Source: an uncultured Candidatus Saccharibacteria bacterium (GTDB lineage Bacteria > Patescibacteriota > WWE3 > 2-01-FULL-39-13). Taken from it: 64,000 nucleotides of DNA. Every line of letters begins with the position of its first letter. Position 1 is the first letter of the stretch. The notes under the pieces were generated by a model. That model worked only from the letters and a program-made list of their open reading frames with translations, searched no databases and had not been told where the DNA came from. The DNA lies in the NCBI GenBank assembly GCA_965230915.1, contig OZ246395.1, positions 600,935 through 664,934 on the forward strand. Reading direction: 5' to 3'. This document shows, in pieces, positions 26,958 to 64,000 of the stretch. The position numbers and the translations under genes are program-made.

Positions 26958-27845
26958 CTATTTAATTCGAGAGGTACGAATTTTTTCTAAAATATTAATT
27001 GCAAATAGAATGAATCCTGTAGCGAATTTAGGATATTTCTTAGAATAATGCTTCTCATAAAAGAGCCTCATGGCTTGGGTTCTGGCTTTGCTCATTTTTA
27101 GACGCGTTTCTTTTGATGCTTTAGAAACATCTCCGGTTTCTTTGCGAATTCCGACAGAAACACCTTTATAATGTAATGATTCAAATTGTGGCAAATACAT
27201 TAATTTATAACCGGCCTGTTTAATTCGATAACACATGTCGACGTCTTCTCCATATACAAAGTAGTCTTCGTCCCATAAGCCAATTTTGTCTAAGATTTCG
27301 CGGCGCATGAGCATAAAATGCGAAATGCATAGATCAATTTCATGTGGAATATCCATATTTTCGTATCCCATAAAGTATTGGTTAAAAGTTTTTGATTTTG
27401 GAAATACTTTGTTTAGTTTTGAGAAATGTGTGAGCGCCGCCCAAGGGGTAGGAAAACCTCGGTGTGCATCAGGATCTAAAGTGCCATCTCTCAAAATAAG
27501 TTTACAGGTTGCGGCGCCGACATCTTTATTAGCTTCGAAATAGTCGACCATTCCTGAAATCGTGCTCTCTTTCGGAAAAGCATCGCTTCCCATATACAAA
27601 AGATAATCACCTTTCGAATTTTTTATTCCGAGGTTGTACCCGGCAGAAATTCCTCTATTCTCAGCCTTAATTGCAATTACATATGAGAAATTTTCTTTTA
27701 CTGCATCATAAGAGCCATCGCTGGAACCATTATCGACAACAATAATTTCTAAATTTTTATAGTCGGATTTATGTAAATTGCGAATGCAATCTAATAAAAC
27801 ATCTCTGGTGTTGTAATTTACGATAATGACTGAAACGAGTTTCAT
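26958..27845 (-). CDS. GT2 glycosyltransferase
   Basis: VSVIIVNYNTRDVLLDCIRNL...LEIIVVDNGSSDGS (GT2-A fold DXD region). Confidence 0.85.
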   Translation of the reverse strand: MKLVSVIIVNYNTRDVLLDCIRNLHKSDYKNLEIIVVDNGSSDGSYDAVKENFSYVIAIKAENRGISAGYNLGIKNSKGDYLLYMGSDAFPKESTISGMVDYFEANKDVGAATCKLILRDGTLDPDAHRGFPTPWAALTHFSKLNKVFPKSKTFNQYFMGYENMDIPHEIDLCISHFMLMRREILDKIGLWDEDYFVYGEDVDMCYRIKQAGYKLMYLPQFESLHYKGVSVGIRKETGDVSKASKETRLKMSKARTQAMRLFYEKHYSKKYPKFATGFILFAINILEKIRTSRIK

Positions 27846-34189: not shown

Positions 34190-34574
34190 AAAAAATATCT
34201 TTTAGTACTCCAATTATCAAAATTCCAAATCCAATTAAAGAGAAATATTCTGCTAACTTCGAATATCCTAAAAGTAATGCGATAACACCCAGACATATCA
34301 TAATGATAGAAAAACCATATGAGTATTTTCTATCAACAATAAAGGTAAAAAATAGACACCAAAGAATTATAAGTATGAATATCAAATTTAAAATTATTGA
34401 AAATCCGAAATAACTTGTAAGAGTAATAAAAAAAATTATGGCAAGTATTGCATTTAAGAACTTTTTATCTAGCCCATAAACTTTATCTATATTATTTATA
34501 TTTACATAAAAAGTTATTCCTATTATTAGCGCAAGAACAAATCTTATAATGTCAAATTGACTTTCAATAATCAT
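34167..34574 (-). CDS. small hypothetical 4-TM membrane protein
   Basis: 135 aa, 4 hydrophobic segments. Overlaps both flanking genes by a few nt (operonic). Confidence 0.4.
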   Translation of the reverse strand: MIIESQFDIIRFVLALIIGITFYVNINNIDKVYGLDKKFLNAILAIIFFITLTSYFGFSIILNLIFILIILWCLFFTFIVDRKYSYGFSIIMICLGVIALLLGYSKLAEYFSLIGFGILIIGVLKDIFYEKLFEK

Positions 34575-42434: not shown

Positions 42435-42522
42435 GAGCTAATTTTACGGGATAACTGTGATTCTGCATAATATACTTTTATGTTTAATCTGTGTTATAAA
42501 AATATTATTATCCTGCCACAAA

Positions 42523-44628: not shown

Positions 44629-45438
44629 ATGGATAATCCAAAAGTAAGTGTAATAATTCCGGTTTATAACGCAGAAAAATACATTGGGGAGGCCGTTGAT
44701 AGCATTTTAAGACAGACTTTTAAAGATTTTGAAATTATTATTCTTGACGACGCTTCAACAGATAAAACACCCGAAATAATTTCATCATATAAAGACGACC
44801 GAATAAAAGTTTATAGAAACGAAAAGAATTTATATATTGCGGGCAATCGAAATAAAGGTGTTGCATTGTCAAAAGGCAAATACATCATGTGGCAAGATGC
44901 CGACGATATTTCAATGCCAGATCGAATGGAAGTTCAATATAATTTAATGGAATCCAACCCCAAAATTGGCATCTGCGGATCATACTTAGAGATTTTTGAT
45001 GAAGGAGGAACTTCCCATATAAGAAAATATAAAACTAACGATAAAGAAGTCAGGCGAACAATCTTTAGATACTCACCGGTCGCACAACCTTCGGCAATGA
45101 TTCGCAAAGAGTGTTTTGATAAGTTTGGGTTATATAGTTTAGATATGCCGCCTGCTGAAGATATAGAAATGTCATTCAGAATTGGACAAGAATATGAATT
45201 TGCAAATATACCACGTCCACTTATCAGATATAGAGTCCATAATAAGTCAGCTACTTTTGCAAAATTAAAACAAACTGAAAACAATACACTAATAACCCGC
45301 CAAAGATTTAAGAATAATCTTGCTTACAATTATACATTCAATGATTCTGTCTATAACTTAATACAAAAAATCACACTAGATTTAATGCCGTCTGAATTTC
45401 GAATTCATTTATTTAATTTTATTAGGAGATTTATATGA
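44629..45438 (+). CDS. GT2 glycosyltransferase
   Basis: VSVIIPVYNAEKYIGEAVDSILRQTFKDFEIIILDDASTDKT...WQDADD. Confidence 0.85.
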   Translation: MDNPKVSVIIPVYNAEKYIGEAVDSILRQTFKDFEIIILDDASTDKTPEIISSYKDDRIKVYRNEKNLYIAGNRNKGVALSKGKYIMWQDADDISMPDRMEVQYNLMESNPKIGICGSYLEIFDEGGTSHIRKYKTNDKEVRRTIFRYSPVAQPSAMIRKECFDKFGLYSLDMPPAEDIEMSFRIGQEYEFANIPRPLIRYRVHNKSATFAKLKQTENNTLITRQRFKNNLAYNYTFNDSVYNLIQKITLDLMPSEFRIHLFNFIRRFI

Positions 45439-46310
45439 TACGCGTAATACTTATGGGCGGACTCGGCAATCAAATGTTTCAGTATGCAGCTGCAAAATCC
45501 TTGGCTATAAAGAATAATACTGATTTATATTTAGACTTAAGTTTTTTAAATACACGCCTTCCAATTAAAGGTTTTACAATTAGAAATTATGAACTTGACC
45601 TCTTTAAAGTACAAGATCAAACAGGTACGTTTTTTGGCGTTAACTTTTTGGATAAATATTTTTCTTACGCAACGGAACACTTTATAAATAAATACTTAAA
45701 CCCCGGCTACTATATAGAAGGGCCTAACCCATATGAATTTAATGAAAAATTTTTTAGTCTTGGACCGGAAACAACATTAAACGGCTATTTCAATAATCCA
45801 AAATATTTTGAACCATACGAAAATGAGATTAGAAGAGTATTCGATTTAGGCAAATTCTATGATGCCAAATACAACAAAATCGAAAGCAAAATTAAGGACA
45901 CCGAGTCAGTCTCGATAAATATCCGGCGCGGAGATTATCTAAATAGCAAACATAAAGATATTTTCGCATTCCTTGATGAAAACTATTATAAGCAAGCTAT
46001 AGATGAAATTCGAAAAAGAATAAAAAGCCCACATTTTTTTGTGTTTTCGTACGATGATCCTGAATGGTTTGAAAAGACATTTAAAATGGATAACTCAGAA
46101 TATACAATGATGGGTAAAGAGTATGTCGGTGATAAGTTTAAGACATATCTACGGCTTATTTCTCTTTGTAAAAATAATATTATAAGCAATAGCACCTTTG
46201 CTTGGTGGGGAGCTTACCTTAATAAAAATGACGATAAATTTGTTGTATCTCCGGTTAGATGGATGAATAAATATGATTTTGATGTTCCTAATAATTGGAT
46301 AAAAATATAA
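45435..46310 (+). CDS. GT11 alpha-1,2-fucosyltransferase
   Basis: All three GT11 motifs are present: N-terminal GGLGNQMFQYA, SINIRRGDY (HxRRxD), and SNSTFAWWGAYL. Confidence 0.85.
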   Translation: MIRVILMGGLGNQMFQYAAAKSLAIKNNTDLYLDLSFLNTRLPIKGFTIRNYELDLFKVQDQTGTFFGVNFLDKYFSYATEHFINKYLNPGYYIEGPNPYEFNEKFFSLGPETTLNGYFNNPKYFEPYENEIRRVFDLGKFYDAKYNKIESKIKDTESVSINIRRGDYLNSKHKDIFAFLDENYYKQAIDEIRKRIKSPHFFVFSYDDPEWFEKTFKMDNSEYTMMGKEYVGDKFKTYLRLISLCKNNIISNSTFAWWGAYLNKNDDKFVVSPVRWMNKYDFDVPNNWIKI

Positions 46311-49884: not shown

Positions 49885-52137
49885 ATGATTAAGAAATATA
49901 TAATCTACATAGCTTTTTTAGTTTTCGCAGTCTCATATTCATTCTTTTTATTCTCAAAATTTCCTAACGACAAATTTTTATTTATTGGCGATCAATTTTT
50001 CCGCTTTTCTAAGGAAGAAATAAACGAGAATGCATTTTACATTCGAAAATTAGAAAACTTTGGGGTTTTTAATGCATGGCAATTAACTGTTCAAACTCCC
50101 GAAATATTATATTACACAACTGTATATAATATTGGATTAACACCCCGACAGGCAGAACAACTACTATTCGCATTAATAATCTTTATAACGCTGTCTCTAT
50201 CCTATTATTCTTTTAATAGGTTAAAGGAAATTTTTTCCCCAAGAGCAAATGATTGGCTGGTGCTGGCAATAGCTGTTTGGTATTCGATGAATCCATATTT
50301 AATGGTTTTGTGGCACGGGGCTACTTATAACTTCGGGTCATCACTTACATATTCGCTGGCGCCGCTAATTTTATATTACTTTCATAAGTCGATCATCGAC
50401 TTCACCGCATCCAAAAGTCGACTTATATGCGCCGTTTTAATGTTTCTGGCATCTTTTACCTTTTGGATGTTTGCGGCATATATATTTTTCCTTGCGATGT
50501 ATTTTGTTTTGTATCTTTGTTTCAACAGAAAAATGATAGGTGTCGCAGTCATAAATCTATTAAAACTTGGGCTTTTGTATCTTCCACTATGCGCAATAAT
50601 GATTTATCCATTACTGCATGAAAACTTTAATAATAATGCAGATGTAAATGGTGCTTTTGCACCTATGTTTACTCAAATTAAAGGTGGAATGCTCTATCAG
50701 TTTTTAATGTATTTTTCTTGGGGCATTTATAACTATTGGACCCCAAGATCTATTTATCCCGAAAGTATTACGAATTTTTATTTCTCCCCTTTTTATATAG
50801 GGTCTACTGTTTCCTTGTATGCTTTACTTTTAATTCCAATAGTTAATAAATTTAGAAATAAATCAGATGAAAAACTCTCGAGAATTGTAAATCGTAACTT
50901 TTTTATTGCTATTTTTGCTCTTATTTTTATAGTTTCTATCTTCTTAGGAAAAGGACCAACAAATCCATTTGGACAAATTTTTATATTTCTATACAATCAT
51001 TTCCCATTTTTTAATGTATTTAGAAGCTCAGATTATAGATTTGGATTTACATCAGTTTTAGCATTGTCATTATTATTTTTAATAGTTCTGCCACATATAA
51101 AGAAGGTAAAATACGCGGCAATCTTACTCTTCTTATTAACTTTTATACAAAATTACATATTCTTTGACACCTCGCTTATAATCGGACAGAATAAACAGCC
51201 GGATTTCACTGACCGCGTTGTTACAATTCCGCAAGACTATAAAGAATTAAAAGACTTTTTTGATAATGATAAGGAGACATCTTATATTTATGCTGATCCA
51301 TCTGTTGAATTCGGAACTTATAACTTAGGCGTTGATGAAAAGCACACAGGACAAGACTTACTACCCAAAATAATCGACCAACCAATGGCATATATACCTG
51401 TAACGACAGGCATGTCTATTCCTACTGCACAGGTTTTGTATACAGCTTTAGTAAATAAGCAATTTGAACTATTGAAACTACTTCCGCTTAAATACATTGT
51501 TTTGCGTAATGATACAGTTTGCGTTGACTGCGCACTCATAGAATCGGAAGATATAAAAGATGGTTTTACTGAATTGTTCTCAAATAACACTTTTAAAGTT
51601 TTGGGCATCTACGATCATACTCCACTTATAAGATCTAGCGACACATCAGTTGTAACATACGATATCGTGTCACCAGTAGAATATAAAGTAAGCATGGTAG
51701 GCATGACCGGCCCAGCAATCCTAAGTTTACTGCAAAGTAACAGCAGTAATTGGTCAGTTTATCTAAATAAATATGAAGAACCACTGTGTGAAAATATTGT
51801 TAGGGTTAATGGCACTACTTACCAATGCGAAAGAACCAAACATCTTCTAAATTTAAGAAATTTACAATTACCTTCAAATGTAAAAATAAGCGGTAAAACA
51901 TATTCGCAGAATCTAAACCATATGAATTCATGGGAAATTGACCCGGCATATATATCTACCTCATATGACCAAAGTTACTCCCAAAAAAATGAAAATGGCA
52001 CTTATGATCTTTTACTCACCATATATTACAATCCACAAACTTCTTATATGAGATATGCCGCACTATCAATTATTCTACTTATCTCTTATATTGTACTTAT
52101 AGCTTTTAATGATAAGTATTTTAAAATCAGACTCTAA
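49885..52137 (+). CDS. large polytopic membrane protein, putative GT-C-type glycosyltransferase
   Basis: 750 aa. An FLFIGDQFFRF loop after TM1, more than 12 TM segments, a ~300-aa extracytoplasmic C-domain, and a C-terminal TM anchor. Confidence 0.4.
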   Translation: MIKKYIIYIAFLVFAVSYSFFLFSKFPNDKFLFIGDQFFRFSKEEINENAFYIRKLENFGVFNAWQLTVQTPEILYYTTVYNIGLTPRQAEQLLFALIIFITLSLSYYSFNRLKEIFSPRANDWLVLAIAVWYSMNPYLMVLWHGATYNFGSSLTYSLAPLILYYFHKSIIDFTASKSRLICAVLMFLASFTFWMFAAYIFFLAMYFVLYLCFNRKMIGVAVINLLKLGLLYLPLCAIMIYPLLHENFNNNADVNGAFAPMFTQIKGGMLYQFLMYFSWGIYNYWTPRSIYPESITNFYFSPFYIGSTVSLYALLLIPIVNKFRNKSDEKLSRIVNRNFFIAIFALIFIVSIFLGKGPTNPFGQIFIFLYNHFPFFNVFRSSDYRFGFTSVLALSLLFLIVLPHIKKVKYAAILLFLLTFIQNYIFFDTSLIIGQNKQPDFTDRVVTIPQDYKELKDFFDNDKETSYIYADPSVEFGTYNLGVDEKHTGQDLLPKIIDQPMAYIPVTTGMSIPTAQVLYTALVNKQFELLKLLPLKYIVLRNDTVCVDCALIESEDIKDGFTELFSNNTFKVLGIYDHTPLIRSSDTSVVTYDIVSPVEYKVSMVGMTGPAILSLLQSNSSNWSVYLNKYEEPLCENIVRVNGTTYQCERTKHLLNLRNLQLPSNVKISGKTYSQNLNHMNSWEIDPAYISTSYDQSYSQKNENGTYDLLLTIYYNPQTSYMRYAALSIILLISYIVLIAFNDKYFKIRL

Positions 52138-52139
52138 CT

Positions 52140-53876
52140 ATGATCGAATCTATACTTTCCAATTATTGGGGAGATTCTGCCGCAAGCTTATATTCAAGCA
52201 ATGTATCTCCCGAATCATTTTCTAGCACAATTGTTTACCTTTTCCGGGGAATGTTTGGTGTTCCAGGAATATATAATTTTTTAATTATATTAGGTTTTTT
52301 TACAACATGGATTATCGGATTTTTAATTATAAGAAAGGAATTTAGAAATAATTTAGTAGGTATATTCTTCGCAACTCTTATTACTTTTGCACCGCTAAGA
52401 ATTCGTTATTCGATGGAATGGCCAACATTAATTTCCTGGGGCTTCTGCTTTGCAATGGTATACTTCAGCTATAAATACATAACACGGTCAAAAATCTCAT
52501 ATGCGATACTAGCTGGACTGTTCTTCTGCTTAGCTTTTACAGAGCACCCATATTCCGGAATAATTTTGCCTTCGGTTACAGGAATCTCCACATTTATTTT
52601 TTTACTAATTCAAAAACAAAAGAAGTATTGGATAAACGCAATAATCCTCCTTATTATACTTGGCGCATTTTCCGCCCCAGGTTTTTATAACATCTTTAAA
52701 ACGCGTGAGTATATTAGCGGCGAATCAAATTATTTATCATTAAGCCGGAGTGAGGCTGACAGATGGGCTTATTCCGCGAAACCATGGAATTACTTCGTGC
52801 CCGATATCGATAACCCCATTCTTGGCGATACTGCGGTGAAAATTAACTACTGGATATGGGGACAAACACCCTACTATCTAACAGAGCCGTTCTTTCCTAA
52901 AGAACATACTTTATATGTAGGAATAACTCTATTTATTTTAGCTTGTTTTACTTTATATAAAACATATATAAAGAAGGATCAAGCAATACTAAAGTATAAA
53001 GAGCTAACCCTATTCTTCGCATTAATAGGTTTGACTGCTTTTATATTCAGCATGCCACCTCATGCACCAATTAATGGAGTAAAAATATATTTTCCGTCGG
53101 CTATTATTTACCAAATAGCACCACAGTTAAGGGCATTTGCACGCTTCGGCATTCTAGTATTTATTGCGAATGCTGCTCTGGCCACAATCGGATTTAATTA
53201 TCTTCTTAACCTAGAGATAAATAGAAAAATAAAATATACTCTTATATTGTTGATCTCGATACTTGTTATAGTCGAATTCTCAACAAACTTCTTCTCTAAA
53301 AGTATTTCTTCTATCCCAACCACTCCATATAAGTGGCTCGCACAGCAACCCGGAAATTTTACACATTTAGAAATTCCAAGGCGGACTGATTATACTGACT
53401 CACTTTATAATGTGTACTACGATAGACCAATAATTAACCGATACCTAAATACATCTAAGCAAGTTAAAGAAATTGAAGATTCGATTATATATGATATCGG
53501 GGACTCAAAGGAATTGATCTGCAATCACTTTGTAAACTCATTAAATGGGAAATATATCGTATATCATAACGAAGATCTTATAAAGCGCACTATAGTAGAG
53601 GATTTTGTTAAAACTGGAAAGGTAACACCTGCGTTAAAAATAGCTCTAAGCGAAAGCTGGGGCCAACCGATATGGGGCAATCATCTTGAGAAATCTGAAA
53701 ATGATAAACAGAAGGACGAATTGAGAAAGAATCTACTAACCAAATTCAAAAATGATCCTAGATTAAAACAAGTTGCCGAATTTAAACAGGGAGAATTAGA
53801 CTCAGATCCGCACTACAATACAAATGACCTAGATGCAATTACAATCTTTGAAATTAACTCCGACTATTGCAAATAA
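52140..53876 (+). CDS. polytopic membrane protein, putative GT-C-type glycosyltransferase (paralog family)
   Basis: 578 aa. An N-terminal SNYWGDSAAS loop (compare SWGD in the 34571..36886 product), more than 10 TM segments, and a hydrophilic C-domain. Confidence 0.4.
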   Translation: MIESILSNYWGDSAASLYSSNVSPESFSSTIVYLFRGMFGVPGIYNFLIILGFFTTWIIGFLIIRKEFRNNLVGIFFATLITFAPLRIRYSMEWPTLISWGFCFAMVYFSYKYITRSKISYAILAGLFFCLAFTEHPYSGIILPSVTGISTFIFLLIQKQKKYWINAIILLIILGAFSAPGFYNIFKTREYISGESNYLSLSRSEADRWAYSAKPWNYFVPDIDNPILGDTAVKINYWIWGQTPYYLTEPFFPKEHTLYVGITLFILACFTLYKTYIKKDQAILKYKELTLFFALIGLTAFIFSMPPHAPINGVKIYFPSAIIYQIAPQLRAFARFGILVFIANAALATIGFNYLLNLEINRKIKYTLILLISILVIVEFSTNFFSKSISSIPTTPYKWLAQQPGNFTHLEIPRRTDYTDSLYNVYYDRPIINRYLNTSKQVKEIEDSIIYDIGDSKELICNHFVNSLNGKYIVYHNEDLIKRTIVEDFVKTGKVTPALKIALSESWGQPIWGNHLEKSENDKQKDELRKNLLTKFKNDPRLKQVAEFKQGELDSDPHYNTNDLDAITIFEINSDYCK

Positions 53877-56089
53877 ACGAAAGGAACTGATTTCTTTTCG
53901 ATAAATATTAAATAATAGTTTCCTTGCTTTAGTTCTACAAAATCGACACTACGATCCTCTTTTATATTTCCAAGAATTTTATAAATATTATCCTTTTCAT
54001 CTTCTGAAAAAATAAAGAGGTTTTTATCATAATAATCTATTGCTAATAATTGTGCTGGCATAACATCCCCTTCAATATTGTAAAAATTGTGCCCATCGCG
54101 AACTGTATTATCTGCAAAATAATAAACTGGCATTAAATCAATGTCATCACTTACTTGAATAAGCGCCTTATCCATTAAATGTCGATTATAAGCTAGTTCC
54201 AGTAGAAAGGTTAAGTTAACGTCGTATGATTTCTTAAAATAGAGATTATTAGAAATTAAACCTAAAATTATTGTTACAGAAAGTAATGCTATAAGTATTA
54301 AATTCGAAACCTTTTTGCCTAAATTGAAAATATATGTCTCTCTAATAAAAGACATAATTAACAAGAAGAACCCTGCGATAGCTAAAACAACAAAAACTAG
54401 ATAAAGCTTTATCGAAACAATTAAATTAGGCTCTATTATGTTTGCGATTCCAAATATTAAGCTTGTAAACGCAAGTGAATAAAAGCCCCCAATATAACGC
54501 TTTAGGATCAAAAATAATAAAGCAATTGACCCTACATAAAACATGCCGGCTAAAATACGACCAGTATAAACATAATTCCCAATTACATATTTAAAGACAG
54601 ATAAAAGCCAAGAGTATTGATCTACTATAAAATTAGGCTTAAATGCCTGGCTGAACATACTTAATTCTAGTCCATTTAATGGATGAGTTAAGAAAATAAC
54701 TGGAACTATAAGTGTGGCTATCGAAAGTGCGACTACAATAATTCTTTTTAAATCACATTTCTCAGGACACAGTATATTTCTGATTGTATTAATAAGATTT
54801 TGTGTAATATAAAACTTAGCAACATATGCTGATGCAATTAATACAAACATCCAAAAGAATTCTGATTTGTATGAATACATGAACCCAGCCGTTAAGAACG
54901 AAACAATCGCACCCAAAAAGCCCAAAGCTGTAAAGTCATTTTTCATGAGATAGATTCGATATAAACCGGTAATTAAAACTGCCCAAAATGCTGCAAATAC
55001 AATAAAAGACACCAGTCCAGTTTCGGCTAAAACCTCAAGCCAGAGATTGTGTAACGGTAATTTTAAGTCAAGTGCGGCCTTATCGATATAGTAGTAAACG
55101 TTTGCCCATTCTGTATTTCTAAAATATGCGTGAAATGAATTGGCCCCAATACCTAATAAGAAATTTTGAATTCCAACAATTATTCCAACCTTTAGCAAGA
55201 ATAAATGTGAGAAAAATGAAACCGACCGATATAAAAGCGATTCGCGAATGGAATCTGCTTTCCAATAAAACAATGATAAAAATCCAAGAATTCCGGCTAT
55301 TGTTGAAAGGTAGTAAATTCCGAATTGATATTTGCTGGCTGTCTTAAACTTTAAGTTTTTAAAGGACAAGACTCCGAATACTAATAGTCCAAATATAAAT
55401 CCTATTAAGGAGCTCCTTGAACTTGTTAAATGCAAAGCTGTTAAAGCCCCAATAGCTAAAAGACCAAAGAAGATCCTTGTAGCTGTCCCTACTCTATCTT
55501 TTGCAATAATAAATCCAAGTAGAATCAGAATAAGGGCTGAACAAAAAGCTCCAAAATGATTTATATCCCAAAAAGTTGAGCCATAACGAGTCGGATATTC
55601 TGGCACCGGCCAAACTCCGCCAATTGCAATTTTATAATTTGTTTGAAGATATATTTGTATTCCTAAAAATACTAGAACTGCAATAAAAGTCAAACCATAT
55701 AATGTAACTAAATCTTTAACACCATCTTTACGTTCAAAAATAAAATTTCTTACGGGAATATAAGTAAATGTAATCGCTAACTGAAAAGCTATTAATCGCA
55801 ACGAACTAACTACATCACCTGTTTGTAATAAGCTTAATGACTGAAATCCGACAAATGAAATCAAAAACCAGAAAAATATATCTTTAGAATAATCTTTGAA
55901 GTTCTTAATAAACAAAAATAGCCCAATTACAGCCAAAGATATTAGAGCATATTTAGACCAGACTAAATCAGGGTCGTAAATCGAAAACGCCTCTTTATGG
56001 TTAAATGGGATCGCAATTACTAATAAGTAAATAAGAGCGTAGTACCATTTAAAAACATCTTTTGTTGGCTTGAATAGTTTATTTAGCAT
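53864..56089 (-). CDS. Wzy_C (O-antigen ligase / PglL-like) domain membrane protein with an additional C-terminal membrane and soluble region
   Basis: 741 aa. GVWPVPEYPTRYGSTFWDINHFG and LHNLWLEVLAETGLVSF (the H-N...E-G motif of the O-antigen ligase family). The N-terminal half is paralogous to that of 56079..59150. The second half has a VDQYSW loop and further TM segments. Confidence 0.55.
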   Translation of the reverse strand: MLNKLFKPTKDVFKWYYALIYLLVIAIPFNHKEAFSIYDPDLVWSKYALISLAVIGLFLFIKNFKDYSKDIFFWFLISFVGFQSLSLLQTGDVVSSLRLIAFQLAITFTYIPVRNFIFERKDGVKDLVTLYGLTFIAVLVFLGIQIYLQTNYKIAIGGVWPVPEYPTRYGSTFWDINHFGAFCSALILILLGFIIAKDRVGTATRIFFGLLAIGALTALHLTSSRSSLIGFIFGLLVFGVLSFKNLKFKTASKYQFGIYYLSTIAGILGFLSLFYWKADSIRESLLYRSVSFFSHLFLLKVGIIVGIQNFLLGIGANSFHAYFRNTEWANVYYYIDKAALDLKLPLHNLWLEVLAETGLVSFIVFAAFWAVLITGLYRIYLMKNDFTALGFLGAIVSFLTAGFMYSYKSEFFWMFVLIASAYVAKFYITQNLINTIRNILCPEKCDLKRIIVVALSIATLIVPVIFLTHPLNGLELSMFSQAFKPNFIVDQYSWLLSVFKYVIGNYVYTGRILAGMFYVGSIALLFLILKRYIGGFYSLAFTSLIFGIANIIEPNLIVSIKLYLVFVVLAIAGFFLLIMSFIRETYIFNLGKKVSNLILIALLSVTIILGLISNNLYFKKSYDVNLTFLLELAYNRHLMDKALIQVSDDIDLMPVYYFADNTVRDGHNFYNIEGDVMPAQLLAIDYYDKNLFIFSEDEKDNIYKILGNIKEDRSVDFVELKQGNYYLIFIEKKSVPFVYLQ

Positions 56090-59000
56090 TTTCTATTTGT
56101 TCTGGCTGTTCAGGCGGGAATCCATAATCAGTTAATTGTTTAATAACATCGGCTTCTTGTGGCTCTAAAACTCTAAGTCTCATGCGTTCTATTGCTGTTA
56201 ATGGCTGTTTTAAGCGTTGTTTCTCACGAATACCTTGCAATGCAAGTTGCAATTCATTGTATTTATTATGCAATACATCAACTCTAGATAATGATTTCAT
56301 CAAAACCCAGTCGCCTGCAGAACCCTTAACATCTAAAACTAACGGGGCGTCAATCTTGTCCTGATCATCATTTACACTATAGTAAATATCAGTTGGGACT
56401 AAGAAATCTCTATTTTCATCAGGTTGAGCATCTTCGATTAAAGACAATATTTCATCTTCTTTAATGGCTTTAATCTTATGTTCGCTATAGAAAAGTAATA
56501 CCGGCGGAGCAATATTTACATAGTAAAGTTTTCGTTCAGGATATAAATCCTTCGGATATGTATCATTGAATATTTGGACAAGAGCAACTTTATCCTTGTT
56601 AAAGTCTGGATAATAAATCTTGTCGCGAATTATCACAACATAAAATGCTGAAATTAAAAACATTGCAAACAGCGCAACAGATCTTACATATATTGGATTA
56701 AATTTGGCATCAGCCTTCAAATTCGTATTTACGACATAGATAAATCTGTCAATGAATCTTGCAGCAATTAAAGCCATAAATGGATAAATCGGCATTATGT
56801 ACCATTGCAATTTGTCTTTCGAAATTGAGAAGAACAATAAAACAAAAGCTGTGCTTAGCATTAATAGCATATATTCTTTACGGTATTTTTTGTCTATAAA
56901 GAAAAGTGAAACTACCCCAAGAGCAAAAGGTAATATCCAAATTCTAAAAGCCACCTTAATAACTTCTAAAAACCACCAAATCGGTTGCTCATGCCCTAAT
57001 CCTTCGGCTCCTCTACTTATGATATGTTCGAATAAATATTTATCTATAAATTCTTGACCATGAATCATATACGAATAAATATGCCATGGTAATGCGACTA
57101 ACAAGGAAGCAAGGATAAAAGGTAAAAATCTCTTAAATGAAACTTTGTCTTTTTGTACAAAGATTAAATATAGCCAATATAACCCAAGTACAGGAACAGG
57201 AATTAATCCAATAATCGCTTTAGTCATTACACCAAGGCCAAGCATTACTCCAGCTGCAGCAGATATCCACATAGCATTTTTCTTTGTAGAAAATGCCCAA
57301 TACATTAAGTAAATCGTTGCAACAATAAAAACGGTGGCAGTTACATCAAGCATTCCATTTCTTGAATAATATAAGTAGTGTGAAGTCGAAATTAAAATAA
57401 GTGCGGCAAAAACTCCAGTTAATTTGTTATAAAGCTTATTTCCAAACTTATAAATTAAAATTACGCCTAAAATTCCAAAAGTAGTTGAAACAATTCTTGC
57501 TCCGAATGAATTGAAGTTTGTGACCTTAAATACTAAAGCAGTAAGCCACATATAAAGTGGAGGTTTTTCAAACCACATATCGTTAAGGTCTTTCCAATAT
57601 AAAGTTATCCAGTTACCACCTTCTACAATATTTCTAGCTACTTTTGCATAAATAGCTTCATCCCAATCAATTAAGGTAGTACTTCCTAAATTTAATAAGA
57701 AATAGAAAAGCGCCATTGGAACAATAATCAGATAAGGAGTTATTTTAGCTTTATACCACCAGCTCAAAACATATCCGAAATTAAAGTTAACATCAAAATT
57801 TATGAAAATGTAGCCTATCGCTAAAAACAAAGTCACCCAATAAAACTCGATATTGTATGAATAAAAGAGTCCGCCTGCAAAAAGTGCTAGCACACTACCT
57901 AAAAGCCCAATACCTAAATATTTCAAACTATCTTTTTTACTCTTAAAGACTGTAGTAATAAGCGAAGCCAAAATTAATATAGCAAACGAGGCGTAAGTAA
58001 CAATTCCAAGTCCGCCTGTTTCACCTAAGACTTCTCCCCATACGCTATGTGGAGGAACCTTAAGATCTCTTAATTTAGGTTCGCGGTCAAAATAATCAGT
58101 AGCCGTTTCGGTCTTTCTAAATGCTGGGTCAAATCCGCCATAGCCTGATCCTACTAATAAATTGTTAAAAAAGACCTCAGCAGCACCCTCTAAAAGCATA
58201 AAATGTGTATCAGTTGAATCTAAACGATAGTGCATGTAACTCGCGATCTTATCCCGAATAGAAATACCTTTATATGTTGTATAACCAATAAGCCCGGAGA
58301 ATGCTAGAACGACCACAACTAGGCTAATAGCAAGCGGCTTTCTTAAATGATTCCAATAATAGATGACAAAAGAAAGAGACATTCCGACAGATAAGCCGAT
58401 CCAAGCGCTTCGCGACTGGGTCATAAAAAGAAGCAAACACATAAAAGCTGCGCCTAAAGCTGAAATTATTTTCCATTGAACCTTTTTAACTGCAAAGATA
58501 TATGCAAATAAGATAGGAATAATAGTTATTAAAAATCCGCCATAATGGTTTACATCCCAGAAAGTTGAACCTAAGCGTGGAGGGTTACCTGGAACAACCC
58601 AAACTCCTCCGACTGAATATCTGCAACAACTTCTCAAATAATATTGGACTACAGCAAAAATACCTGCAAGCCAGGCGATACCAATATATAAATGTAAAAA
58701 ATTTCGATAGAATGATTCACCCGATTTTAAAATTTGTTGTTTAAATACAACATAAAAAGAAAGAATGATTGTATAGAAAGCAAAGAGCGAAAGACTGTAG
58801 TCTTGAACTTCTGATTTAAAAATTGATAATCCCCTAATTACCCATAATGTTAACAATAAGATTAAAAATGGATCTGTTTTTATGAAATTAACTAACAGGT
58901 CACTAAATTTTTTCCATCCATTATTTTTTATCCAGATTAGAAGTTTTACAAAAGCGACAAGTGATACTGATAAAATTGCGATTCTTATCGGAAGTAAATC

Positions 59001-59150
59001 CCATACAATAAAGCTAAATAGCTCTTTATGCATTAATGGGGTAAGTGCCAGAACATAAAAAAGACCCCATTTGAGGTTTTTTATTGAAAGTCCAAGCCCG
59101 ATTAAAAATGTCGCGACAATAATCGCTATATCTATACTTTGCGAGATCAT
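56079..59150 (-). CDS. fusion of a Wzy_C (O-antigen ligase/PglL-like) domain and an ArnT/PMT_2-like GT-C glycosyltransferase domain
   Basis: 1023 aa. The N-terminal half reads GVWVVPGNPPRLGSTFWDVNHYG...PPHSVWGEVLGETGGLG (Wzy_C). The second half reads IDWDEAIYAKVARNIVEGGNWITLY...FEKPPLYMWL (the DE..Y...A / KPPL motifs of GT39/GT83). The ~250-aa C-terminus is hydrophilic. Confidence 0.65.
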   Translation of the reverse strand: MISQSIDIAIIVATFLIGLGLSIKNLKWGLFYVLALTPLMHKELFSFIVWDLLPIRIAILSVSLVAFVKLLIWIKNNGWKKFSDLLVNFIKTDPFLILLLTLWVIRGLSIFKSEVQDYSLSLFAFYTIILSFYVVFKQQILKSGESFYRNFLHLYIGIAWLAGIFAVVQYYLRSCCRYSVGGVWVVPGNPPRLGSTFWDVNHYGGFLITIIPILFAYIFAVKKVQWKIISALGAAFMCLLLFMTQSRSAWIGLSVGMSLSFVIYYWNHLRKPLAISLVVVVLAFSGLIGYTTYKGISIRDKIASYMHYRLDSTDTHFMLLEGAAEVFFNNLLVGSGYGGFDPAFRKTETATDYFDREPKLRDLKVPPHSVWGEVLGETGGLGIVTYASFAILILASLITTVFKSKKDSLKYLGIGLLGSVLALFAGGLFYSYNIEFYWVTLFLAIGYIFINFDVNFNFGYVLSWWYKAKITPYLIIVPMALFYFLLNLGSTTLIDWDEAIYAKVARNIVEGGNWITLYWKDLNDMWFEKPPLYMWLTALVFKVTNFNSFGARIVSTTFGILGVILIYKFGNKLYNKLTGVFAALILISTSHYLYYSRNGMLDVTATVFIVATIYLMYWAFSTKKNAMWISAAAGVMLGLGVMTKAIIGLIPVPVLGLYWLYLIFVQKDKVSFKRFLPFILASLLVALPWHIYSYMIHGQEFIDKYLFEHIISRGAEGLGHEQPIWWFLEVIKVAFRIWILPFALGVVSLFFIDKKYRKEYMLLMLSTAFVLLFFSISKDKLQWYIMPIYPFMALIAARFIDRFIYVVNTNLKADAKFNPIYVRSVALFAMFLISAFYVVIIRDKIYYPDFNKDKVALVQIFNDTYPKDLYPERKLYYVNIAPPVLLFYSEHKIKAIKEDEILSLIEDAQPDENRDFLVPTDIYYSVNDDQDKIDAPLVLDVKGSAGDWVLMKSLSRVDVLHNKYNELQLALQGIREKQRLKQPLTAIERMRLRVLEPQEADVIKQLTDYGFPPEQPEQIENAK

Positions 59151-59155: not shown

Positions 59156-60343
59156 CTATAAGCTATTGGGGTTGTATAAATTTTTATAAACCTCGATAGT
59201 TTGTTTTGCTGTGTTTTCCCAGCTATACTGCGCTTTTATCTCATTACGCATATTTTCAAGCATTTTAGGCTTAAATATTGCACTAAGTATAGCATTTTTG
59301 ATGCTTTCTACGCTGTCAGGCTCGCAATAATAAGCATAATCTTTTAAGTATTCTTTTGTGCGTTCGCCAGTTGCAACTACATTCATTCCCGAAAAGGCTG
59401 CCTCTAAAGTTACAAGACCGGTTGTTTCGAACCAACTGGTATGAACAAAAATTCCATCGTGATGCATTGCAGAAGCAACAATTTCAGGTGGCTGTATCTT
59501 AATGTATATTATTTGTTTATTTTTTGAGATCTTGTCTCTAAATCTACTCGCATATTCATAGCTGTTTTTTGTCATAGCTCCAATAAATACTAAATAAAAA
59601 TCATTTAGATGACCTGATTTTTGTAATTCTTCAAATGCCTGAATTAAAGCTAATTGATTTTTACGTGGCTCGATTCGCCCAACAGCCAAAATTATTTTTT
59701 TATCAGAAATATCTATATCGAAATTTTCACTTATTAATTGGTTGAATTTTTGGGTATCTGTGTCTTCGAAAACTTTTAAATCAACACCATTAACAATTTT
59801 TTTATATTTAAACTCTGAAAAATTAAAATCGGTTTTAATATCTTCAGCCTCTTTTTCTGTTTGCACAAGAACAATATCAGACATTTTTAAAACTTCGCGC
59901 TGCTGATTTCTAAATCCACTAATTAGTTGGCTAAAAGTTGGAATAAATTTTTTAGGATAGTACATGCTTCGATAGAAGTTCTTTCCTACATCACGTAAAA
60001 CCTGCGACCTGAATATAAAATTATAAAGTTTTCGAATATCATAGGCAGCGTTTTCCTCATACTTTATAACTTCTTTTTCTGAATGGTGAATTGCAGATAA
60101 AACTACTTTTTTGCCATGTCCTTTCGCCCATTTCGCCTGTGAATATGTTTCAGGAATCCAATCAAGATTAAATAAATGAACAATATCGTAATTATTGATA
60201 TCTTCCGGCTTAATTTTTGTTTTAATATCTATTTGAATTGTTGAGTCGGCTTTTTCAATAGCAGATTTAGTATTTTCCATCTGTGCGGTATCTCCACCTC
60301 TTGGATTGTATAAGTCAATGCGTGACTGAAAGAGTACTTTCAT
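59156..60343 (-). CDS. GT4 glycosyltransferase
   Basis: ILAVGRIEPRKNQLALIQAF...TSWFETTGLVTLEAAFSGMNVVAT. Confidence 0.8.
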   Translation of the reverse strand: MKVLFQSRIDLYNPRGGDTAQMENTKSAIEKADSTIQIDIKTKIKPEDINNYDIVHLFNLDWIPETYSQAKWAKGHGKKVVLSAIHHSEKEVIKYEENAAYDIRKLYNFIFRSQVLRDVGKNFYRSMYYPKKFIPTFSQLISGFRNQQREVLKMSDIVLVQTEKEAEDIKTDFNFSEFKYKKIVNGVDLKVFEDTDTQKFNQLISENFDIDISDKKIILAVGRIEPRKNQLALIQAFEELQKSGHLNDFYLVFIGAMTKNSYEYASRFRDKISKNKQIIYIKIQPPEIVASAMHHDGIFVHTSWFETTGLVTLEAAFSGMNVVATGERTKEYLKDYAYYCEPDSVESIKNAILSAIFKPKMLENMRNEIKAQYSWENTAKQTIEVYKNLYNPNSL

Positions 60344-61446
60344 TATGAGTTGTATAAATTAGTATACGCCTCCCAGAACTTTTCTATCGAGAACTTTTTT
60401 CCCTGATCTTTTTCTGCTTCTACATTAATATCTGAAAAATTTATTATTCTATCTTTTAAACTTATTGAATCCCCAACTTTAAAATAGGCAATCGCATCTT
60501 CACCAACATCTTTTAGCACATCAATATCGGAAGCAATAACTGGAACTCCAACTGACATTGCCTCTACTAAAGCAATTCCAAAACCTTCGGCAAATGATGG
60601 AAATACAAAACAATCGAACGAACTTAATATTTTGTTTTTGTCCGATTCTTGAAAATTGCCTAAAAAATGAACCCGATCTTGTATTCCATATTCTTGAGCC
60701 TTTAGCTGAATATCATTTTGCAGTGCCCCACTTCCGGCTAAAACCAAGACATATTTATCGTCACTAATTGATTTAAAAGCTTCTAATAAAACCATATGGC
60801 CTTTTTCTTCTGTGAATCTGGCAATATTACCAATTACTATTTTATTTTCATCAATGTTTAATCTAGTACGAATTACGTTTCGACCATCTTGATCAAATTT
60901 AAACTGTTTTAAATGAATTCCATTTGGAATAACTCTAATTTTATCTTGATTAATAAACTCTGCTTTTGCACGAATTGATTTTACGGACCGAGTTAATGCA
61001 ATAACATCTGTTGCAAAAACATTTCCAACCACTGCATTTGCAAATGTATTTATAGGTAATGCAAAATATTTTTTAACCTTTGAATATCTCCATTGTGTAA
61101 ATGAAGTATGCACATGATAAATTCTCTTTTTGCATTGAGATTTCGCAAGCCATCCACCGAATGTTGCAAGTGAACCTGTAAGAAGTTCGTGTGCATGCAA
61201 AATATCTATTTTCTCATCTTCAATTATTTTTCTGATTTTGTTTGAATATGTAAAATCGGCTTCAAACTTTGGAGATAAATTATAATGTTTCTTTGCCCCA
61301 GCTTTTAAATACTCTTCAACGAGTGGACCATTTGGGCACACTACATAAAATTCAAATCTATGTGAGAGACCTTCTATTATATCTAAAATATGTTTTTCAA
61401 CTCCCCCATATTGAGATGAGTGGTAACACATTAAAACCTTTTTCAT
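60343..61446 (-). CDS. GT4 glycosyltransferase
   Basis: PSFAEGFGIALVEAMSVGVPVIASDIDVLKDVGED (EX7E). N-terminus LMCYHSSQYGGVEKH. Confidence 0.85.
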   Translation of the reverse strand: MKKVLMCYHSSQYGGVEKHILDIIEGLSHRFEFYVVCPNGPLVEEYLKAGAKKHYNLSPKFEADFTYSNKIRKIIEDEKIDILHAHELLTGSLATFGGWLAKSQCKKRIYHVHTSFTQWRYSKVKKYFALPINTFANAVVGNVFATDVIALTRSVKSIRAKAEFINQDKIRVIPNGIHLKQFKFDQDGRNVIRTRLNIDENKIVIGNIARFTEEKGHMVLLEAFKSISDDKYVLVLAGSGALQNDIQLKAQEYGIQDRVHFLGNFQESDKNKILSSFDCFVFPSFAEGFGIALVEAMSVGVPVIASDIDVLKDVGEDAIAYFKVGDSISLKDRIINFSDINVEAEKDQGKKFSIEKFWEAYTNLYNS

Positions 61447-62696
61447 TTGCTAAGTTCTTCGGTAATTAATTTAAGCTGCCTATCGACTTTGCCACTCCAG
61501 CTGTTTTGCGCTGCCATTTTTTTACGCGCATTTTGCTTATCAATATTATCTTCTTCATACGCTCGCTTTATCATTGCTACAAATTCATCGTCGTTTTTTG
61601 CGATATATCCATCTGGATCAAAACCCTGATAAGCCGGCATATTCGTGACAATCGTCGGTAAACCAGCGGCTAGGCCTTCAAAATATTTAATCGGGAAACA
61701 TCCGCCTACCGTATATTTATTTAAATTATATGGAATAAAAAACACATCAAAATTATTAAAATATTCCGGAGTCTCAGCCCAAGGCTTCAAACCCAAAAAA
61801 TGAACATTTCCCATGCTTTTTAATTTCGTTAAATCTAAATCGGGATCAGAAACTTTTTCAGGTCCGATCATTACAAAATGAAAATCAGGCAATTCTTTGG
61901 CACATTTTTCAATTAATGGAATATTATTTTTGTAAGTATCTATAGCGCCGGTGAATCCCACGCGAGGATGTTTAATATTTTTTAAATCAGCCGGCTCTTC
62001 AAGTGTTCCACGAACAAAATCGAATTTTTCACTGACCGCAGCATTGGGCAAATAAGAAACAACCGGCTTCCATTTCATTAATTTAGTAACAAGCCCGGGA
62101 GCACTAGCAAAAACTAAATTTGCTTTTTTTGTTAGCCATTCTTCGCGATGCAAAACCCAGTCAACGCCTTGTAAACCATGTTGATTCAGTCTGATTTTTA
62201 GTTCATCATCAATATATTGAATCCATGAAATTACCGACGGATTAACTTTTTTTCGTTCAGAATATTCTGGAAATTCGGTATATTCATCGACGCAATCATA
62301 AACCATTAAATCGTGGCTAAGTTTATCTGAAAAATTTTCAAGATCAGGAAAATCAAAGTGATATATATACAGAATTCTTTTATAGACTTCCCCTTCGGCT
62401 TGAGTTTTTAAAATATTGTTTAAAACCAACGAATGATATGCTGTATTAACTATTGAAAATGGCCAAAAATTAAAAATATTCATTCCGCGATAAATCGTTA
62501 AATTATCGTTTTTCTTTTCGCCAAAAATAAATTTGTAATTTTTAAAAATATTCTTGAGTGCTTTAAACCTCAAAGGTGGATCAACGAAAATAACTTTGTG
62601 ACCTTTCTCTACTAATTGAGTTGCTACATGCCACTTGTTAGTTTTAAGTTCAAAATCAAATGGTTGGTTGGATAAAATAACAAATTGATATTTCAT
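61443..62696 (-). CDS. GT1/GT4-like glycosyltransferase
   Basis: 417 aa. The C-terminal region FFIPYNLNKYTVGGCFPIKYFEGLAAGLPTIVTNMP has a GT-B donor-binding fold pattern. Confidence 0.55.
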   Translation of the reverse strand: MKYQFVILSNQPFDFELKTNKWHVATQLVEKGHKVIFVDPPLRFKALKNIFKNYKFIFGEKKNDNLTIYRGMNIFNFWPFSIVNTAYHSLVLNNILKTQAEGEVYKRILYIYHFDFPDLENFSDKLSHDLMVYDCVDEYTEFPEYSERKKVNPSVISWIQYIDDELKIRLNQHGLQGVDWVLHREEWLTKKANLVFASAPGLVTKLMKWKPVVSYLPNAAVSEKFDFVRGTLEEPADLKNIKHPRVGFTGAIDTYKNNIPLIEKCAKELPDFHFVMIGPEKVSDPDLDLTKLKSMGNVHFLGLKPWAETPEYFNNFDVFFIPYNLNKYTVGGCFPIKYFEGLAAGLPTIVTNMPAYQGFDPDGYIAKNDDEFVAMIKRAYEEDNIDKQNARKKMAAQNSWSGKVDRQLKLITEELSK

Positions 62697-62697: not shown

Positions 62698-64000
62698 TTA
62701 TTTAGCTTTGTTTAGTTTAAAAATATAATAGTAGTTAACTCCTGCAATTTTAATCGTATCATCTGGAGTCTTTAATGAGTATAAATTCTTATAATACTCA
62801 TTTCTTTCTGGCCTAAAGGCGGGCAATACAAGATAATCAGCCTGATTTCTTTCCTGTTCATTCTTAATATTTAGCACTTCGAATTCTGCAAATGGCCTTA
62901 GGTAATCAAAATCTGCGATTGCGATTTTAATAGTTTTATCTTTTCCAACTTGCTTTTCATTAAAATATTCTGCTACTTTATCATATCCGATTAACCATTT
63001 GGGCTCGATTATATATCTACCGTCTTCGACACCTCCAACTAATGGACTGTAGTATGCGAGATAATTTGGATGTAATCCATAAAACAATAACCCTCTAAAA
63101 ATTATTAACCCGATTATAAAAGCAATTAGTATTTTCCTTTTTATCATCTCAGAATAGAACCAGGCAGAGAGAATGCCCATCGAAAAAACAATCGGCAAAG
63201 AATATCTATCTAGCTTCTTAGAAACTACTGTAACCATTAATAAATAGAAAAATGCATATAGGCCGAGCGTAATATAAAACCCAATTTTTTTATCGTTGAA
63301 ATATTTTGTACGATTTTTGAATAGTAAATATATTGACCCAAGAAAGCCAATAACAAAAACAATCGAATACCTAGCAAAAAAAACAATCGGATAAAATAAT
63401 GGGCCTGGATCATCTGTTAATTGTCCAAACCAATAATGCTCATGGCCTTCTTCAATTGCAATTCCTTGAACACCTTTAAATAAGTATAAATTTATAGAGT
63501 CAATTGGAATCACCCACATTGCTGGCCAAAAAATAAAAAATGCCAAAATAGAAAAACCAAATGTTACGATAACTTTATAAATTGTCGTGAGATCTCTAAA
63601 TCTATAAAAATAGATTGCACTTATTAGTGCAAAAAATGGAATTAAGAATAGTGCCGAGCTTTTCGTAAGAAAAGCGAGGCCTGCAAATCCTCCTGCAAAT
63701 ACTGAATCAAATGTAATCAGCTTTTTATTTTCGCTCGTTATCAGACTATAAAAATATAAAACCGAAATAAACATAAACAGTGAAATCATTGCATCTGTAT
63801 GCAACGCGCGAGCTAATGCCAAATAAAATGGCTCAATCGAAACTAACAACACCGCAAATAATGCTAGCTTTATACCTACGATTTTTCTTAGTTTATGATA
63901 AGCAATTGTTATTAAAACGGAAGTTAACACAACTACTACAGTTGCTTGGATCTGATTATTTATTAAAAATTCGTGCCTCGAATCAGGTGTTGCTAAAATG
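62698..64000 (-). CDS. GT-C-type (ArnT/PMT-like) polytopic membrane glycosyltransferase, N-terminus beyond the window edge
   Basis: The frame stays open past the listed GTG at 63930 through to base 64000. Multiple TM segments, then a ~120-aa C-terminal soluble domain. Confidence 0.5.
   Translation of the reverse strand, partial: ILATPDSRHEFLINNQIQATVVVVLTSVLITIAYHKLRKIVGIKLALFAVLLVSIEPFYLALARALHTDAMISLFMFISVLYFYSLITSENKKLITFDSVFAGGFAGLAFLTKSSALFLIPFFALISAIYFYRFRDLTTIYKVIVTFGFSILAFFIFWPAMWVIPIDSINLYLFKGVQGIAIEEGHEHYWFGQLTDDPGPLFYPIVFFARYSIVFVIGFLGSIYLLFKNRTKYFNDKKIGFYITLGLYAFFYLLMVTVVSKKLDRYSLPIVFSMGILSAWFYSEMIKRKILIAFIIGLIIFRGLLFYGLHPNYLAYYSPLVGGVEDGRYIIEPKWLIGYDKVAEYFNEKQVGKDKTIKIAIADFDYLRPFAEFEVLNIKNEQERNQADYLVLPAFRPERNEYYKNLYSLKTPDDTIKIAGVNYYYIFKLNKAK

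Follow-up and report, generated by a model that had tools for sequence, protein, structure and literature searches.

The DNA analysed here (the window) comprises 64,000 nucleotides of contig OZ246395.1 (assembly GCA_965230915.1, forward-strand positions 600,935 to 664,934), deposited for an uncultured Candidatus Saccharibacteria bacterium that GTDB places in WWE3; its GC content is ~33%. Towards one end, the minus strand encodes a 1023-amino-acid (aa) polytopic protein, hereafter the fusion, in which a WaaL/Wzy_C-like module is joined through a linker to an ArnT/PMT_2-like module of C-type glycosyltransferase (GT-C) fold and then to a soluble C-terminal domain. Directly downstream lies a 741-aa protein, hereafter the paralog. 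The original prediction, made from the letters and their open reading frames (ORFs), described two adjacent minus-strand genes with a shared N-terminal polytopic domain. Their coordinates were recovered exactly, and the shared domain was borne out by BLASTP (31% identity, E 4e-41, residues 28-448 of the fusion against 17-423 of the paralog) and by HHalign profile-profile comparison (E 7e-77), the similarity being confined to the first ~430 residues. The strings quoted in that prediction were all found in the translations: the fusion contains GVWVVPGNPPRLGSTFWDVNHYG, HSVWGEVLGETG, IDWDEAIYAKVARNI and FEKPPLYMWL, and the paralog contains GVWPVPEYPTRYGSTFWDINHFG and HNLWLEVLAETG. In window coordinates, with residue invariance counted over 48 fusion-family sequences that are 30-81% identical, the features of the two genes are:

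56079..59150, minus strand: fusion gene, 1023 aa (ORF list, Pfam, NCBIfam, AlphaFold2 [AF2] model, Logan contig)
57798..59150, minus strand: N-terminal module, residues 1-451, about 12 transmembrane (TM) helices, WaaL-like, GT-C class B fold
58044..58268, minus strand: large external loop of the N-terminal module, residues 295-369, with R299, R309, H316 and H368 (from the alignment with Cupriavidus metallidurans WaaL [CmWaaL] and the topology assignment)
57741..57797, minus strand: inter-module linker, residues 452-470, predicted cytoplasmic, with a short helix at 458-467 (DSSP of the model)
56631..57740, minus strand: ArnT/PMT_2-like GT-C class A membrane module, residues 471-840
57657..57662, minus strand: D497-E498, DE motif of external loop 1 (D497 in 48/48, E498 in 47/48), aligned with the ArnT DE
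57558..57569, minus strand: E528-K529-P530-P531 (E528, K529 and P530 in 48/48, P531 in 47/48), aligned with ArnT E84-K85 (5ezm)
57345..57362, minus strand: R597-x4-D602, Rx4-6D motif of external loop 2 (both residues in 48/48)
56082..56630, minus strand: soluble C-terminal domain, residues 841-1023, an alpha/beta part and a long helical hairpin (DSSP), predicted extracytoplasmic
53864..56089, minus strand: tandem paralog, 741 aa, with a WaaL/Wzy_C-like module (1-429) followed by ~6 more TM helices and a small domain rich in beta structure

Two membrane modules in one reading frame

Pfam places Wzy_C (PF04932) at residues 233-386 of the fusion (E 7.6e-16, 58.7 bits, cut-off 31.7), PMT_2 (PF13231) at residues 529-689 (E 2.9e-22, above the gathering score) and PMT (PF02366) at residues 480-694 (E 3.7e-16). 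As had been predicted, these matches share a single uninterrupted frame within the 1023-aa ORF. The junction itself had been sought at 57.4-57.6 kb, which proved misplaced: the linker (residues ~452-470) lies at about 57.74-57.80 kb. According to the family consensus its sequence varies, and the reading frame is continuous through it. The AF2 model of the full chain, built from the 48-sequence alignment, has a mean predicted local distance difference test score (pLDDT) of 89.3 and a predicted template modelling score (pTM) of 0.86, the latter suggesting a defined packing of the two modules. An Rfam scan of the window gave no match.

The N-terminal module belongs to the Wzy_C family by its Pfam score, its WaaL-like fold, its loop histidine and one conserved arginine. 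A structure search returned WaaL as its only solved relative, followed distantly by RodA, and the module's profile matches the WaaL sequence (E 4.3e-6) at an identity of only ~15%. In the alignment with CmWaaL, for which WaaL residue numbers were re-derived from HMMER alignments, R247 corresponds to R191, R299 to R242, H316 to R265 and H368 to the catalytic H313, so that the loop histidine read earlier as an O-antigen-ligase signature stands. R247 and H368, kept in 48/48 fusions, also correspond to R215/H338 of Escherichia coli WaaL and R224/H349 of PglL, which are reported to be functionally essential (PMC3643930; PMC12800693). Two further invariant motifs are the family's own: H41-K42-E43 in the first external loop, and R192-x-G-S-T-F-W-D-x-N-H in a beta-hairpin before TM6. 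The label "O-antigen-ligase-like" thus holds for the family (PF04932, fold and histidine) and not for the function; a ligase role cannot be read from the domain, because Wzy_C also occurs in beta-linking Wzy polymerases (PMC12502699). The narrower label "PglL-type" is not supported, as PF15864, the PglL_A motif that distinguishes PglL from WaaL (PMC3643930), had no match at E <= 0.01 in either the fusion or the paralog.

For the C-terminal membrane module, Foldseek returned the ArnT fold (E 3.4e-14), and the fusion family profile matches the ArnT sequence (E 1.1e-42). The assignment of this half to PMT/ArnT-type enzymes was confirmed by the alignment, in which D497-E498 falls on ArnT D55-E56, Y501 on Y59 and E528-K529-P-P on E84-K85-P-P, with a loop K780-x-x-W783-Y784 aligned to the ArnT "KLPGY"; the ArnT numbering was derived from the alignment offset, and E84-K85 (in particular K85) belongs to the lipid-phosphate binding region of ArnT. 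Two hallmarks of C-type glycosyltransferases are named in a paper on the mycobacterial PMT (PMC12331936): external loop 1 supplies the catalytic Asp within a DE/DxD motif, and external loop 2 carries an Rx4-6D motif. The module has both, and in every respect tested it is a GT-C class A enzyme of ArnT/PMT_2 type. It is not an ArnT ortholog, because the NCBIfam ArnT model NF009784 matches residues 474-847 with 123.1 bits, far under the equivalog cut-off of 567, which rules orthology out; nor is the fusion a canonical PMT (GT39 proper), because the C-terminal PMT module of four TM helices is absent. The soluble C-terminal domain (~180 residues) had no relatives in a sequence search of the PDB or in Pfam. 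Processive addition, which had been proposed for this half, is without basis: ArnT, its closest relative, is an undecaprenyl-phosphate-L-Ara4N:lipid A transferase that transfers a single sugar.

TM helices of the fusion were assigned manually from the model helices and hydropathy. The N-terminal module has 12, as WaaL does, and the short variable linker leads into the first ArnT-like helix. Plain alternation of all helices was rejected, as it put the C-terminal domain inside and contradicted ArnT. The topology becomes consistent once helix 532-544 is read, by analogy with ArnT, as a juxtamembrane part of external loop 1. Short loops then carry 0.20 K+R per residue inside against 0.08 outside, and the polar residues that are invariant in the two modules, 32/32, are found in outer loops or at helix ends on the outer side. 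Together with the analogy to ArnT, this assignment places the soluble C-terminal domain outside. From model and homology, both active sites are therefore predicted to face outside; whether the histidine loop and the DE loop do so was a check suggested in the original prediction.

Distribution of the fusion

Two separate genes joined by a frameshift or in a chimeric contig could mimic such an ORF, and for this case that explanation has become vanishingly improbable. An identical 1023-aa ORF, uninterrupted, is present on a 945-kb NCBI contig and on an independently assembled Logan contig (run SRR14271372), where it is preceded by the same GT4 gene as in the window. In a protein database the fusion has 184 significant relatives; among the matches listed, 120 of 120 carry both PF04932 and PF13231, and these relatives (at least 120 clusters, drawn from NCBI, JGI, ENA and Logan) are 901-1073 aa long. 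A scan of one genome per GTDB species, answering the earlier call for a survey, found a relative encoded in 203 species-representative genomes. From these, 79 loci were retrieved, including the closed chromosome of WWE3 bacterium RAAC2_WWE3_1; both modules lie in a single ORF in 79/79, of 930-1060 aa wherever the contig permits, and no split version occurs among them. The continuous ORF, the Logan contig, the clusters and the 79 loci together rule out an assembly join or frameshift. With the N-terminal half assigned to Wzy_C, neither of the two grounds for refutation named in the original prediction holds. The fusion is genuine, conserved and lineage-wide, and it is not rare.

By label, nearly all relatives come from candidate division WWE3 or Patescibacteria; these labels, the GC content and the 0.95-Mb contig point to a WWE3-related member of the Patescibacteria as the organism of the window. 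A few fusion-carrying records are labelled Woesearchaeota, Gammaproteobacteria or "Saccharibacteria"; two of the 79 loci, L007 and L062, bear the names "Candidatus Woesearchaeota archaeon" and "uncultured Gammaproteobacteria". All such labels were taken as noise of binning or labelling, and those of L007 and L062 probably reflect mis-binned or mislabelled Patescibacteria contigs, not occurrence outside the lineage. The architecture has been public since the 2013 RAAC2_WWE3_1 genome under a generic GT39 annotation, and relatives are named "glycosyltransferase family 39 protein", "4-amino-4-deoxy-L-arabinose transferase-like" or "phospholipid carrier-dependent glycosyltransferase". A literature search returned no paper on the fusion or on O-antigen-ligase-like proteins of WWE3 or other members of the Candidate Phyla Radiation (CPR), in keeping with the earlier remark that the architecture was not recognizable from characterised systems. 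The fusion, present across the lineage and uncharacterised, unites two GT-C classes that are each known, in a combination undescribed in the literature found. It does not represent categorically new chemistry, and it is not specific to the window.

That over 200 species retain the fusion hints strongly, in the "Rosetta-stone" sense, that both glycan steps act on the same molecule, coupling ligation or polymerisation of a lipid-diphosphate glycan to sugar transfer from a lipid-monophosphate donor. A fusion need not mean this: the modules might work on separate substrates or in separate pathways, one perhaps as a ligase for the glycan of the locus and the other as an ArnT-like modifier of a lipid or a teichoic-acid-type polymer, or one module might be dead and persist as a scaffold or membrane anchor. 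In small, streamlined genomes a fusion can reflect co-regulation in place of substrate channelling, the linker sequence is variable, and the same operon holds a separate PMT_2 protein, all of which would suit independent activities. We nevertheless think this unlikely. Neither module looks dead, because all catalytic-type residues are invariant in both across the 48 sequences, down to 30% identity; the fusion is intact in all 79 loci; and the pTM of the full-chain model suggests that the modules are held in a fixed arrangement.

The conserved glycan locus and a proposed function

ORFs of the 79 loci were clustered and annotated with Pfam, and neighbours were counted within 6 kb of the fusion. 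The conserved core so defined comprises a ~457-aa PMT_2-type GT-C protein (cluster c3, 42/79 loci), the fusion with three GT4 genes before it, an oppositely oriented Polysacc_synt/MurJ-like flippase (52/79), two more GT4 genes, a 211-aa Bac_transf initiating phosphoglycosyltransferase (PGT; 40/79) and a DUF4012 protein (cluster c5, 34/79), often followed by RecO. The three-GT4 block stands ahead of the fusion in almost every one of the 79 loci; clusters c2, c4 and c5 and the GT4 families lie within 6 kb of it in 34-52/79 other genomes; and recurring neighbours are limited to GT4, flippase, PMT_2, PGT, DUF4012, GT2 and RecO. The fusion is the only Wzy_C protein of this core. In the window, the core genes are:

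62698..64000, minus strand: separate PMT_2-type GT-C gene at the operon head (PMT_2 E 2e-8), in the position of cluster c3
61443-62696, 60343-61446 and 59156-60343, minus strand: three GT4 (Glycos_transf_1) genes of the same operon, directly upstream of the fusion (Pfam)
27953-29233: Wzx-like flippase (Pfam)
26958-27845: GT2 (Pfam)
24720-26943: two GT4s (Pfam)
24008-24661: Bac_transf initiating PGT (Pfam)
21891-23984, minus strand: DUF4012 protein (Pfam)

The second half of the core, including RecO, spans 21.3-29.2 kb and is separated from the first, at 56.1-64.0 kb, by about 25 kb of extra glycan genes (29200-56000), unlike in most WWE3 genomes. The PMT_2 gene seems N-terminally truncated in the ORF list; it is merely cut by the window edge, because its frame is open to 64000 and aligns with a 529-aa ortholog in a related locus (L002). 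The DUF4012 protein, of about 600-700 aa, adjoins the initiating PGT. DUF4012 has been noted in a Bifidobacterium cluster for capsular or extracellular polysaccharide (CPS/EPS) and is enriched in CPR and Gram-positive bacteria (PMC6744442); here it might serve as an analogue of a co-polymerase, take part in export or be the acceptor itself.

PGT, GT4s, flippase and Wzy_C enzyme constitute a minimal en-bloc transfer pathway. The reading we prefer, held tentatively and at a little short of even confidence, is that the fusion is a bifunctional outer-face terminal assembly enzyme in a Wzx-dependent surface-glycan pathway of WWE3-type Patescibacteria, with an N-terminal module of ligase or O-oligosaccharyltransferase (O-OTase) type. 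A ligase/O-OTase-like module is favoured because the core locus consists of en-bloc pathway parts without the usual polymerisation accessories. In this scheme, the PGT and the GT4s, working on the cytoplasmic side, would assemble an oligosaccharide of about six sugars on undecaprenyl diphosphate, and the flippase would export it. The Arg/His cluster of the N-terminal module (R247, R299, R309, H316) would then bind the diphosphate, and the module, using H368, would transfer the glycan en bloc to an acceptor hydroxyl. The ArnT-like module (D497/E498, E528/K529, R597/D602) would draw on a polyprenyl-monophosphate sugar to add one sugar to that acceptor or glycan, as a primer before ligation or as a decoration afterwards, and the covalent fusion would enforce 1:1 coupling of the two steps.

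Several known systems resemble parts of this scheme. WaaL of C. metallidurans (PDB 7TPG/7TPJ) has the same Wzy_C domain and GT-C class B fold as the N-terminal module. The fusion differs from it in being ~15% identical, in carrying H316 at the position of R265, in its own invariant motifs, in the second GT-C joined to it and in its patescibacterial host. PglL, PglS and PilO share the same essential Arg and His (PMC3643930; PMC12800693), and the layout of their pathways (PGT, cytoplasmic GTs, flippase, Wzy_C enzyme, no polymerase) matches the core locus, whereas the fusion lacks PF15864 and none of those enzymes is known to have a fused ArnT-like module. ArnT (PDB 5EZM/5F15; GT83; PMT_2) shares fold and motifs with the second module; in the fusion, by contrast, the C-terminal soluble domain is different, with no detectable relatives, and a 450-aa WaaL-like module comes first. 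TfpW of Pseudomonas aeruginosa (bioRxiv 10.1101/2020.04.19.049825), one GT-C proposed for both sugar addition or polymerisation and transfer to pilin, is likened to the fusion by concept only, as it is a single GT-C module and not a two-module fusion.

As to the acceptor, an S-layer protein, a pilin, another surface protein or a membrane glycolipid is plausible. Patescibacteria have Gram-positive-like envelopes with S-layers and pili, and they are generally described as without lipopolysaccharide (LPS); on these general grounds surface proteins or a membrane glycolipid are plausible acceptors and lipid A-core is an unlikely one. No LPS genes were noticed among the annotated ORFs of the window. 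Precedents are WsaB/WsfB, which act in the S-layer glycosylation of Gram-positive bacteria, and the teichoic-acid ligase TacL, which acts on lipoteichoic acid.

The same locus lends itself to another explanation, in which the N-terminal module is a Wzy polymerase, the ArnT-like module adds a side-branch sugar from a polyprenyl-phosphate donor to each repeat during or after polymerisation, and another enzyme attaches the product to the surface. Such an enzyme would correspond, in fused form, to the three-component systems that modify glycans outside the cytoplasm, such as those of GtrA/B/C type and the GT136 system of Citrobacter youngae (PMC11127046), in which an outer-face GT-C with a C-terminal extracytoplasmic domain uses a polyprenyl-phosphate sugar on a Wzx/Wzy glycan. 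Wzy_C is found in 82% of the Wzy proteins that make beta-linked O antigens (cited in PMC12502699), and a PGT, a Wzx-like flippase and multiple GTs accompany a fusion that is the sole core Wzy_C protein. GT-C enzymes that bear a glycan-binding domain at the C-terminus are known to glycosylate after polymerisation (PMC11127046), and the fusion has a C-terminal domain, predicted to be extracytoplasmic, that matches no known family. The neighbouring DUF4012 protein, given its occurrence in the Bifidobacterium CPS/EPS cluster (PMC6744442), could be the co-polymerase, and, as in the three-component systems, the island holds a GtrB/ArnC-like GT2 candidate. In those systems the GT-C is separate and unfused, and the conserved core of the fusion locus lacks a synthase or small flippase. 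Against the polymerase reading, no Wzz/polysaccharide co-polymerase (PCP), bacterial tyrosine (BY) kinase or LytR-CpsA-Psr (LCP) ligase family was found among the recurring neighbours of the 79 loci or in the window; the sole solved relative of the N-terminal module, before the distant RodA, is a ligase; and the residues essential in WaaL and PglL (the Arg at TM7/8 and the loop His) are invariant (PMC3643930). Wzy polymerases, moreover, usually diverge strongly, whereas the N-terminal module keeps more than 20 invariant residues across the lineage; this argument is weak, as conservation extends to the entire locus. On balance we regard a polymerase that decorates its own product as possible but doubtful.

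Other observations weigh against the ligase/O-OTase-like assembly enzyme that we prefer. The second essential Arg (R288 of E. coli WaaL, R265 of CmWaaL) is replaced in the fusion family by the invariant H316; an invariant R309 stands seven residues upstream, in a stretch where alignment confidence is moderate. The PGT and Wzx partners are also what a polymerase needs, and Wzy_C occurs in such enzymes (PMC12502699). A GtrB-like donor synthase is missing from the conserved core within 6 kb, the sole candidate in the window scoring below cut-offs, and no pilin or other obvious acceptor gene occurs among the annotated recurring neighbours (ORFs of at least 100 aa). The predicted topology depends on a model and manual helix assignment, a plain helix count being inconsistent until one juxtamembrane helix was excluded, and activity is attributed to both modules from conservation only.

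A more specific form of the assembly-enzyme reading, which we consider a minority prospect, is "prime-and-ligate" or "ligate-and-cap": one polypeptide would carry out two consecutive outer-face transfers to one acceptor from two classes of lipid donor, in a lineage-specific glycoconjugate pathway. If prime-and-ligate is true, that pathway (S-layer, pilin or glycolipid) would be core to WWE3/Patescibacteria envelopes and without a characterised counterpart. In any case, the fusion lies in what seems to be the chief conserved surface-glycan locus of an ultra-small, uncultivated and probably episymbiotic lineage, and it offers a concrete entry to the envelope glycobiology of CPR bacteria and to how these cells build the surface that contacts hosts and phages. 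It may also be of use to glycoengineers as a natural two-step conjugating enzyme.

The tandem paralog and the glycan insert

The start of the paralog overlaps the end of the fusion gene by 11 nt. Its Wzy_C match covers residues 211-366 (E 1.7e-10, 41.3 bits, cut-off 31.7), with no other Pfam match, and Foldseek of its AF2 model (pLDDT 86.7) returned only WaaL (E 1.3e-3). The paralog family numbers ~30 full-length proteins of 680-780 aa that carry PF04932 only. Their invariant residues are R168, W174, D175, N177, H178, R225, R288, H295 and H347; the essential-type R225 and H347 are kept in 31/31, and H295 occupies the position of the second essential Arg, with R288 seven residues upstream. Since it keeps the same invariant residues as the Wzy_C module of the fusion, the paralog is probably an active enzyme.

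The tandem arrangement described in the original prediction exists in the window and is not a general feature: the paralog lies directly downstream of the fusion only in the closest sub-clade (loci L002-L010, fusion identity at least 40%), where it overlaps the fusion stop codon by 11-20 nt. Recent tandem duplication appears unlikely, as paralog N-terminal modules are equally distant from those of near and far fusions (26.5% and 26.8% identity) and form their own clade; the duplication is thus old or was followed by fast divergence. The paralog tree mirrors that of the co-resident fusions, from which we infer co-inheritance since the base of the sub-clade. The C-terminal 310 aa of the paralog gave no ArnT-like Foldseek match and no Pfam match even at E <= 5. 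A weak HHalign match of paralog residues 490-545 to fusion residues 531-586 (probability 42%, E 2.7e-4, 56 columns) covers the helix after EKPP, and the invariant paralog E475 is possibly equivalent to E498; this hints that the region may be a truncated GT-C remnant without the catalytic Asp. We read the paralog as a second enzyme of WaaL type, particular to the sub-clade; its translation is coupled to that of the fusion, and it probably serves the extra glycan genes inserted in genomes of this sub-clade.

In the window these extra genes comprise GT2s, a GT11-like enzyme, methyltransferases, a DUF2334-GT2 fusion, a tetratricopeptide repeat (TPR) protein and four large polytopic proteins, and their position suggests a hypervariable insertion site within a conserved locus:

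29223-31004: TPR protein
31062-31970, plus strand: GT2, candidate polyprenyl-phosphate sugar synthase (NCBIfam)
31967-34189, minus strand: large polytopic membrane protein, 740 aa
34571-36886, minus strand: large polytopic membrane protein, 771 aa
36867-38426: double methyltransferase
42457-44598: DUF2334/deacetylase-GT2 fusion
45435-46310: GT11 fucosyltransferase-like gene
49885-52137, plus strand: large polytopic membrane protein, 750 aa
52140-53876, plus strand: large polytopic membrane protein, 578 aa (cluster c8)

The four best NCBIfam matches of the GT2 at 31062-31970 are AglJ, PgfS, ArnC and PpgS, each a polyprenyl-phosphate sugar synthase and each below its cut-off, so that this GT2 is a candidate for supplying the donor to the several GT-C enzymes of the island. 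Its neighbours are two unassigned polytopic proteins and a 135-aa membrane ORF (34167-34574). The four large polytopic proteins, for which searches up to E <= 5 gave no Pfam or NCBIfam match, are possibly GT-C-like or polymerase-like enzymes that have escaped recognition. The 578-aa protein and the paralog are convergent with overlapping 3' ends, and they co-occur in related genomes, where the paralog often faces this conserved membrane protein.

A compact division and cell wall (dcw) cluster (6243-18037) lies within the window's first 18 kb, directly upstream of the island of glycan genes, with MraZ, MraW, a penicillin-binding protein (PBP) transpeptidase, an EPSP-synthase-like MurA candidate, FtsW, MurG, FtsQ, FtsA and FtsZ. 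A sigma factor of the extracytoplasmic function (ECF) type is inserted in this cluster (12205-12756, plus strand).

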